Origin: a virus
Lineage: Duplodnaviria > Heunggongvirae > Uroviricota > Caudoviricetes
Length of the DNA: 11,931 nucleotides
Reading direction: 5' to 3' (one strand)
Virus record (IMG/VR): IMGVR_UViG_2529292834_000013
The notes beneath the pieces were generated by a model, which saw only the letters and a list, made by a program, of their open reading frames with translations, was not told the DNA's origin and made no database searches. Below, piece after piece: positions 9,360 through 10,133 of the stretch; the stretch's first letter is position 1; each line of letters starts with the position of its first letter. Made by a program: the position numbers and the translations under genes.

Positions 9360-10133
9360 TCAAAAATTAGGTGAGTAACGGACCGGGGACATAGCTCCTT
9401 TTTTTCTTAATTCATCTGGTATTTTTTTTCCAAGATAAAGATTTGCTATTTCAGGTGGGGCTTCTCGACCTTCAAAACCATAGCGAGAACTTTGTGTTGC
9501 CTCAAAGTCAGGATCCTCGTCCCAGTATTTCATCGTAGGGAAATTTTCACGTGTTGATTTGAGCCATTTATCAGCAATGAAAACCCCTCGAACGATTCCC
9601 CTTACAGTAGCAAGAATGACTTCTGCTTGGCTGGCGCGAGAGACATTAATGCGCCAGCTAAATCGAACCGCATCATAAAGCTCTGAATCCTTTGCACTTC
9701 TGTTAACGGAAATCATTAATGCTTTATGATGAAATGTTATGGTTTCGGGTTGATATGTTGCTATCAACTCTTTGACATGCGCGGCGCCGAATTCATTGCT
9801 GCCAGCACCATTCATGATATTCGTTAACCCAGGGTAGGCATCAATAAGTGCTGCTTCGACTTCGTACGCCGTCTTTTCATCAGTCATTCCGTGTCGATGG
9901 ATGACATGGATAACCTCAAGTCCTGCTAACCTTATTTCTCTAATTTGCTTTAGCTTGTTGCTCAGTAACTCGTCATCATCAGTCGCTGCCACTTCACCGC
10001 GCATATGGGCAAATACGCGGTTACCTTTGCCTTTCCCTACATAGAAGGTGCTTCCGTCCCTCGGATCAATCAATCGGTATACATACCAGCCAAGGTGTTC
10101 AATTACTCCAGAAGGAAACTCAGTAATATCCAT
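9360..10133 (-). CDS. GIY-YIG nuclease-domain protein with ~150-aa C-terminal region of unknown function
   Basis: N-terminal [33 protein letters not shown] is a GIY...YIG motif (compare UvrC GVYRMYD...IYVGKAK), with downstream conserved E/N candidates ([15 protein letters not shown]). Start placed at the internal ATG (MDITEFPSG); the ORF-track start at 10184 is equally unsupported by an SD. Confidence 0.7.

Follow-up and report, generated by a model that had tools for sequence, protein, structure and literature searches.

An 11,931-nt stretch of viral DNA (IMG/VR record IMGVR_UViG_2529292834_000013, Caudoviricetes; hereafter the window, meaning this stretch at its full length) carries a gene whose product is almost certainly CMoRE, also called PD-T4-3, an anti-phage endonuclease directed at 5-hydroxymethylcytosine (5hmC). 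The function assigned here is that of the 98.4%-identical protein of Escherichia coli O157:H7. An earlier note, made by a model from the sequence alone, had proposed a stand-alone, modification-dependent (type IV-like) anti-phage nuclease whose C-terminal region could be a sensor module. This interpretation is supported by work on 98.4%- and 85%-identical proteins, and the published C-terminal domain does bind 5hmC; the finding itself was already known in mechanistic and structural detail.

Identity of the gene product

What identifies the gene product as CMoRE? First, family profiles match it over essentially its whole length. The PADLOC model PDLC04031 (PD-T4-3) aligns residues 1-256 to model positions 1-255 of 256, with an E value of 2.4e-140, and the PHROGs match is phrog_5356 (E 2e-143). 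Second, a sequence search of the PDB returns two proteins only, both at full length: 9u75/9u8d (E 3.7e-172) and 9u7u/9u7z (E 1.1e-150). The entries of both carry the title "5hmC specific restriction endonuclease ... PD-T4-3". One is the crystallised O157:H7 enzyme (9U75/9U8D), identical at 253 of 257 residues (98.4%), and the other is the enzyme of avian pathogenic E. coli (APEC) O1 (9U7U/9U7Z), identical at 219 of 257 (85.2%). Third, all residues with published mutational or structural roles are kept with the same numbering (Y17, Y19, Y31, D52-E55, R80, V92, L96 and Y127), including V92 and L96 of the tetramer interface. The acidic loop reads DDDE here and in the APEC O1 enzyme, and DDDD in the O157:H7 enzyme. 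In an alignment of 41 homologues, Y17, Y19, Y31, R39 and E93 are invariant; we infer that R39 and E93 are the catalytic Arg and Glu, which are not numbered in the CMoRE paper. Fourth, Pfam finds a single domain, the LEM-3-like GIY-YIG domain PF22945, at aa 28-110, with an E value of 2.1e-14 and a score of 54 bits where the cut-off is 27. This bears out the GIY-YIG motif that the earlier note had placed in the N-terminal part of the protein, and the coordinates it gave for the gene are exact.

The arrangement of the gene fits as well. The ORF list, Pfam and the RefSeq neighbours show no adjoining methyltransferase or partner gene, as the earlier note had said; the gene has pin on one side and a tRNA fragment and an AraC-family gene on the other, and CMoRE is thus a single-gene system here. 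For assignment to type IV, the architecture of a reader plus a nuclease and the lack of a methyltransferase are seen in the window, and modification dependence comes from the 98%-identical protein. All defining features of CMoRE / PD-T4-3 that a sequence can reveal are present, and nothing in the sequence counts against this identity.

The extent of the protein is supported by several sources. The list of open reading frames (ORFs) gives a minus-strand ORF at 9360..10184, counted from a TTG codon as 274 aa, and the in-frame ATG at 10133 gives a 257-aa protein, MDITEFPSG...SPNF. The same 774-nt coding sequence is annotated in RefSeq (WP_000355484.1) in a genome that is 100% identical to the window over 9200-10560, and the 257-aa enterobacterial homologues share the same start Met. 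The alternative TTG start at 10184, which would add 17 aa, was set aside, since a start at MDI is common to RefSeq, the crystallised constructs and the enterobacterial homologues. The WP_000355484.1 protein is identical to the one encoded in the window, and its cluster has 1045 member sequences.

Features of the CMoRE gene and its flanks, in window coordinates
Feature	Position	Strand	Details	Basis
CMoRE / PD-T4-3 coding sequence	9360..10133	-	257 aa; stop codon 9360-9362	ORF list, family profiles, RefSeq coding sequence
GIYxY-YIG motif	10035..10091	-	G15-W-Y17-V-Y19 ... F30-Y31-V-G33	numbering as for Y17/Y19/Y31 mutated in PMC12923530
Acidic run of the autoinhibitory loop	9969..9980	-	D52-D53-D54-E55	read from sequence
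Flexible inter-domain linker	9789..9830	-	aa 102-115	pLDDT (predicted local distance difference test) <50 in full-length model; no crystal density
C-terminal modified-cytosine sensing domain	9363..9788	-	aa 116-257	
Upstream region, start codon to tRNA-Ser fragment	10134..10310	-	177 nt; presumed native promoter site	
pin invertase copy adjoining CMoRE, nonsense-shortened	8748..9266	+	172 aa vs 184; TAG at 9264-9266	Pfam Resolvase and partial HTH_7
Right arm of 671-nt inverted repeat (pin and crossover site)	8662..9332	.	end 28 nt from CMoRE stop codon	
tRNA-Ser (CGA anticodon), 3' 66 nt	10311..10376	+	attachment-site remnant marking prophage end	

Published properties and proposed mechanism

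CMoRE has been described in three steps: functional selection in 2022, confirmation in a native host in 2025, and structure and biochemistry in 2026. PD-T4-3 was first recovered as one of 21 systems in a functional selection; the list of these systems includes "a GIY-YIG nuclease", and some of them were located in prophages, Mu-like or other (Vassallo et al. 2022, PMC9519451). Deletion of the native gene in the clinical isolate NILS69 sensitised the strain to Tevenvirinae phages, and a Capnocytophaga homologue, 48% identical, is modification-dependent in vivo and in vitro and also cuts Mu DNA. PD-T4-3 was subsequently renamed CMoRE, and was found to restrict T2, T4 and T6 about 10^5-fold; defence is direct and non-abortive, with normal growth at a multiplicity of infection above 1 (Liu et al., Nat Commun 2026, PMC12923530). 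The purified enzyme cleaves DNA containing 5hmC or glucosyl-5hmC (5ghmC) and not DNA containing C or 5-methylcytosine (5mC); correspondingly, T4(hmC) is sensitive and T4(C) is resistant (PMC12923530). Cleavage follows the pattern CN11/N9G, leaves 2-nt 3' overhangs and requires two modified cytosines (PMC12923530).

The same work assigned roles to the parts of the protein. Y17, Y19 and Y31 form a "GIYxY-YIG" motif in the N-terminal domain, which is a nuclease of the GIY-YIG type. An inserted acidic loop autoinhibits the enzyme, such that a 4A mutant is toxic, cuts normal DNA and has lost discrimination between self and non-self. CMoRE is tetrameric, and the V92S/L96S substitutions abolish both assembly and defence. 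The C-terminal domain binds 5-hydroxymethyl-dCTP (5hm-dCTP), with the 5-hydroxyl bonded to the main-chain O of Y127 (PMC12923530).

How would the protein encoded in the window work? The steps that follow were shown in the 98.4%-identical O157:H7 protein, and we infer them for this allele. The protein would assemble from two head-to-tail dimers into a tetramer. Within a dimer, the C-terminal domains would bind DNA containing 5hmC or glucosyl-5hmC, and not C or 5mC, and the dimer would read two modified cytosines about 21 bp apart, within the site CN11/N9G. The acidic loop D52-E55 would cover the active site and repel ordinary DNA, protecting the host chromosome without a methyltransferase; tighter binding would allow modified DNA to push this acidic lid aside. 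The GIY-YIG domains, using Y17, Y19, Y31, the catalytic Arg and Glu, and Mg2+ or Mn2+, would then cut both strands between the marks and leave 2-nt 3' overhangs. The expected outcome is direct, non-abortive degradation of incoming DNA of T-even-type phages. Since host DNA, which has no 5hmC, would be neither bound nor cut, no methyltransferase would be needed.

The C-terminal sensor domain

The earlier note could not assign the C-terminal region, and by sequence methods this is correct: the last ~140 aa have no Pfam match even at E <= 10, with 25 homologues, and a profile search of PDB sequences with the C-terminal domain returns CMoRE entries only. Liu et al. (PMC12923530) found no sequence or structural homologue of the domain and termed it a distinct fold. 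AlphaFold2 models agree with the description of the crystals, giving two domains and a low-confidence linker at aa 102-115, for which electron density is absent from the CMoRE crystal structures (PMC12923530). When the model of the C-terminal domain was searched with Foldseek, a check that the earlier note had suggested, the best match after self was VcaM4I (PDB 6YEX; E 0.02, with a Foldseek match probability of 0.87), followed by YTH, the McrB N-terminal domain and ASCH, all with template-modelling (TM) scores < 0.5. The best non-self fold matches of the CMoRE C-terminal domain thus include VcaM4I, ASCH, EVE (THYN1), YTH and the McrB N-terminal domain. The check yielded PUA-like matches that are weak though consistent, and no firm fold assignment; the fold signal is weak, the query was a predicted model rather than crystal coordinates, and sequence support is lacking.

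It is an evenly balanced proposition, resting on these model comparisons, that the domain by which CMoRE senses 5hmC/5ghmC may be a PUA-like barrel (ASCH/EVE/YTH-type) that has diverged strongly, rather than a new fold. If so, there would be two consequences. First, CMoRE would belong with the type IV enzymes of the PUA/EVE-nuclease class, which includes, for example, VcaM4I and the predicted EVE-GIY-YIG fusions; such fusions were predicted earlier (Bell et al. 2020, PMC7641849). Second, it would suggest that the pocket for the flipped base is formed by a group of conserved aromatic residues in the barrel (Y153, W160, W190, F198, Y233 and Y253), and not by the edge site occupied by free 5hm-dCTP. 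These six aromatics, together with R157 and N197, are invariant.

Points against the identification and alternative explanations

Several points weigh against a full transfer of the CMoRE mechanism to the gene in the window. First, the protein differs from the crystallised O157:H7 protein by four substitutions (T51A, E55D, Q169K and N197H), and the activity of the allele is taken from its homologues. No function has been assigned to any of the four positions. E55 and N197 are shared with the active APEC O1 enzyme, and N197, invariant in the 41-sequence alignment, is the consensus residue of the family; it is therefore the crystallised O157:H7 protein, with H197, that departs from the consensus. 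Second, the model of recognition is based on a complex with a nucleotide (5hm-dCTP) and not with DNA, and the paired 5hmC groups in the CMoRE dimer are ~53 Å apart, compared with the ~71 Å span of a 21-bp site (PMC12923530). For these two reasons the detailed readout of the modified base is uncertain. Third, a consensus scan for sigma-70-like sites over 9200-10960 found no promoter on the CMoRE strand, the sites being no more numerous than in shuffled sequence, and inspection of the sequence ahead of the CMoRE ATG showed no evident Shine-Dalgarno. Expression of CMoRE in this strain is therefore an assumption. Fourth, the APEC O1 gene is only weakly active from its native promoter (PMC12923530).

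The lack of a detectable promoter and the weakness of the APEC O1 copy are also what would be expected if the gene were an intact but silent relic of a decayed prophage, without a defence role in this strain. The element around it is heavily degraded, with a truncated integrase, a nonsense mutation in pin, insertion sequence (IS) fragments and no tail-fibre constant region. We nevertheless consider this improbable: the ORF is intact, its product is the widespread protein WP_000355484.1, which is also found in apparently complete prophage tail modules, and the 177-nt upstream region is 99% conserved in the O157:H7 prophage copy. The native chromosomal copy in NILS69 is active, and published CMoRE constructs with native promoters are active (PMC12923530).

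A second alternative is that the gene encodes a free-standing GIY-YIG homing endonuclease, which would spread its own gene by cutting at a specific unmodified site. Annotations of some homologues in jumbo phages point this way; these annotations are name transfers and not experiments, and the only trace of such a function in the protein is a marginal match to phrog_314 (E 0.0021). The earlier note had named a homing-endonuclease DNA-binding domain with an intron or intein context as the observation that would speak for this alternative, and neither is present: the gene lies between pin and an attachment-site remnant at a prophage end, and Pfam finds no NUMOD, IENR1 or helix-turn-helix (HTH) module, at E <= 0.01 for the full length and E <= 10 for the C-terminal 140 aa. 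Moreover, near-identical proteins cleave in a modification-dependent and largely sequence-independent manner and restrict phage. The homing explanation is hardly credible, and is effectively refuted by the published biochemistry. Similarly, a DNA-repair or structure-specific nuclease of the UvrC, SLX1 or LEM-3 type, as the RefSeq name "LEM-3-like" suggests, is very improbable, given that the LEM-3-like match is limited to the catalytic core, the gene is accessory and prophage-borne, the homologue leaves unmodified DNA uncut unless the acidic loop is removed, and no repair partner genes lie near CMoRE. CMoRE thus stays the preferred identification.

Distribution and the position beyond pin

The window is of E. 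coli origin. The CMoRE gene is present at >= 95% nucleotide identity in 838 of 5426 complete E. coli genomes (~15%), and the whole arrangement seen in the window is present in 18, including enterotoxigenic E. coli (ETEC) O6:H16 2014EL-1346-6, FORC_031 and TW10598. Its usual place is the terminal position of e14-family prophages, directly 3' of pin, which is the slot of mcrA in K-12. Both pin copies in the window are 91-92% identical to e14 pinE (92% for the copy beside CMoRE), and the homology ends at the pin stop codon. Past this point, e14 of K-12 has mcrA and then the attachment site, and the right-hand side of the window has CMoRE and then the tRNA-Ser fragment. The earlier note had recognised this mcrA-equivalent cargo position, and the sampled loci agree with it. 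A pinE match is present in 3144 E. coli genomes. Among eight E. coli pinE loci, taken at even steps down the match ranking, the gene just beyond pin is of CMoRE type in 4 and mcrA in 2; nothing is annotated in 1, and the question is not applicable in 1, a P2-like phage with an internal invertase. In one of the four CMoRE-type loci, that of UTAK-14, genes for a type II endonuclease and a cytosine methyltransferase come after the CMoRE-type gene, and ssrA is adjacent. O157:H7 strain ECP19-2498 encodes the identical protein in the same pin-CMoRE-tRNA-Ser-AraC order, after an apparently complete tail and baseplate module. Together, these loci suggest that the slot 3' of pin in e14-family prophages is an exchangeable defence cassette that holds McrA, CMoRE (sometimes with a type II restriction-modification system) or Avs2.

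Homologues are also found well outside this slot. Full-length homologues, 38-45% identical over 97-99% of the protein, occur in lytic jumbo phages of Serratia (Moabite, 2050HW, Kodama), Pectobacterium, Pantoea, Pseudomonas (OBP) and Klebsiella (N1M2); the phage records include ON287376, MK994515, JN627160 and MN642089. Their annotated function, where one is given, is "endonuclease", "nuclease" or "putative homing nuclease". One possible role is as weapons that these phages carry against rival phages whose DNA is modified.

Comparison with known systems

CMoRE in the window resembles the O157:H7 and APEC O1 enzymes in its length, two domains, GIYxY-YIG motif, acidic loop, interface residues, sensor domain and single-gene arrangement. 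Unlike the O157:H7 gene, the window copy is part of a prophage remnant that has been rearranged and in which pin is duplicated. McrA (EcoKMcrA) of e14 is likewise a single-protein, modification-dependent type IV nuclease, encoded immediately 3' of pinE and before the attachment site. However, McrA combines an HNH nuclease domain with an N-terminal reader of another kind, targets sites containing 5mC, and has no sequence similarity to CMoRE; mcrA is co-directional with pin, whereas CMoRE is convergent with it. Pfam finds no HNH match in the CMoRE protein, GIY-YIG being its only nuclease domain, and the analogy to McrA is therefore one of position only.

Other enzymes share CMoRE's role against T-even phages. 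PvuRts1I/AbaSI and GmrSD/BrxU restrict DNA with 5hmC or glucosyl-5hmC; PvuRts1I combines a PD-(D/E)XK nuclease with an SRA-like reader, and GmrSD is built from DUF262/DUF1524. CMoRE differs from PvuRts1I and GmrSD in having a GIY-YIG nuclease and a reader that sequence methods do not detect. Like CMoRE, PvuRts1I cuts at a fixed distance between two modified cytosines (PMC12923530). The modular logic of a reader plus a nuclease is also shared with VcaM4I (PDB 6YEX) and the predicted EVE-GIY-YIG fusions (PMC7641849).

The surrounding locus

Two facts about the gene's setting were absent from the earlier note: CMoRE is on the minus strand, and the adjoining invertase gene is a truncated copy of a duplicated pin. 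Compared with the intact O157:H7 copy, a TCG (Ser) codon has become TAG, which removes the last 12 aa of the HTH; the other pin copy, at 6313-6867, is intact. The shortened pin ends 94 nt from the CMoRE stop codon. The two pin copies lie in the arms of an inverted repeat identified by a repeat search (6283-6953 and 8662-9332; 96% complementary), and each arm consists of a pin invertase gene and a 26-bp sequence resembling a crossover site (6922-6947 and 8668-8693). The repeat encloses cassettes for tail-fibre C-terminal parts and assembly proteins, and no tail-fibre constant region lies outside it. This pin-segment-pin structure resembles what would form if two e14-family prophages had been joined, pin end to pin end, at the invertible segment. 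In strain 2014EL-1346-6 (locus 11755-13462), segment 6954-8661 is reversed, and window positions 6277-9339 align in reverse at 97.9%. Among genomes that are otherwise 99.9% identical, the match to the window is a single piece in some and is split in others into two pieces that cover 84%. The occurrence of opposite orientations among near-identical genomes argues that the segment still inverts, or did so recently, whether through the action of Pin or because the 671-nt arms undergo homologous recombination with each other.

On the other side, CMoRE is preceded by the 177-nt spacer, the 3' fragment of tRNA-Ser and then the AraC-family gene. By BLAST, window positions 10311-10654 are 98% identical to positions 25-90 of tRNA-Ser and 278 nt of downstream flank in strain AR434; ARAGORN, and Rfam at gathering thresholds, find no complete tRNA at the prophage end. 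The AR434 match is a serU-type locus beside mtfA/yodB, and the same stretch here is near the pao and ecp genes. That the tRNA-Ser flank is found near pao/ecp and not mtfA/yodB implies that a rearrangement moved an attachment junction elsewhere in the chromosome. O157:H7 has the same tRNA-Ser junction.

Beyond the left-hand pin, ~3.6 kb from CMoRE across the invertible tail-fibre segment, is Avs2 (AVAST type 2), a 1484-aa ORF at 1336-5790 on the minus strand, within a stretch of low GC content (about 31-37%). It is identified by the NCBIfam equivalog NF041813 (1681 bits) and PADLOC Avs2 (E 0). Avs2 and CMoRE thus lie on either side of the invertible segment and make up a small defence island of two systems on a decayed prophage. 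Further out, positions 341-892 on the plus strand encode the C-terminal part of a tyrosine integrase, the N-terminus of which is missing in a related genome, beside an IS66 element; the AraC-family regulator is at 10952-11704 on the plus strand, and a fragment of an IS3-type transposase is at 11746-11931 on the minus strand. The locus is a patchwork of decayed mobile elements.

Implications

What does the identification of CMoRE in the window mean? As discovery, its value is small because the system had already been described. It has value as calibration: raw sequence alone gave the right function, the right domain logic and the positional analogy to mcrA. RefSeq names WP_000355484.1, WP_000355481.1 and WP_000355479.1 as "LEM-3-like GIY-YIG domain-containing protein" or "hypothetical protein" in every E. 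coli genome listed, and there is no NCBIfam model for the CMoRE protein. With such names, the defence function is invisible in standard annotation. Since the gene is present in ~15% of complete E. coli genomes, it is relevant to the host range of therapeutic phages that are T4-like.
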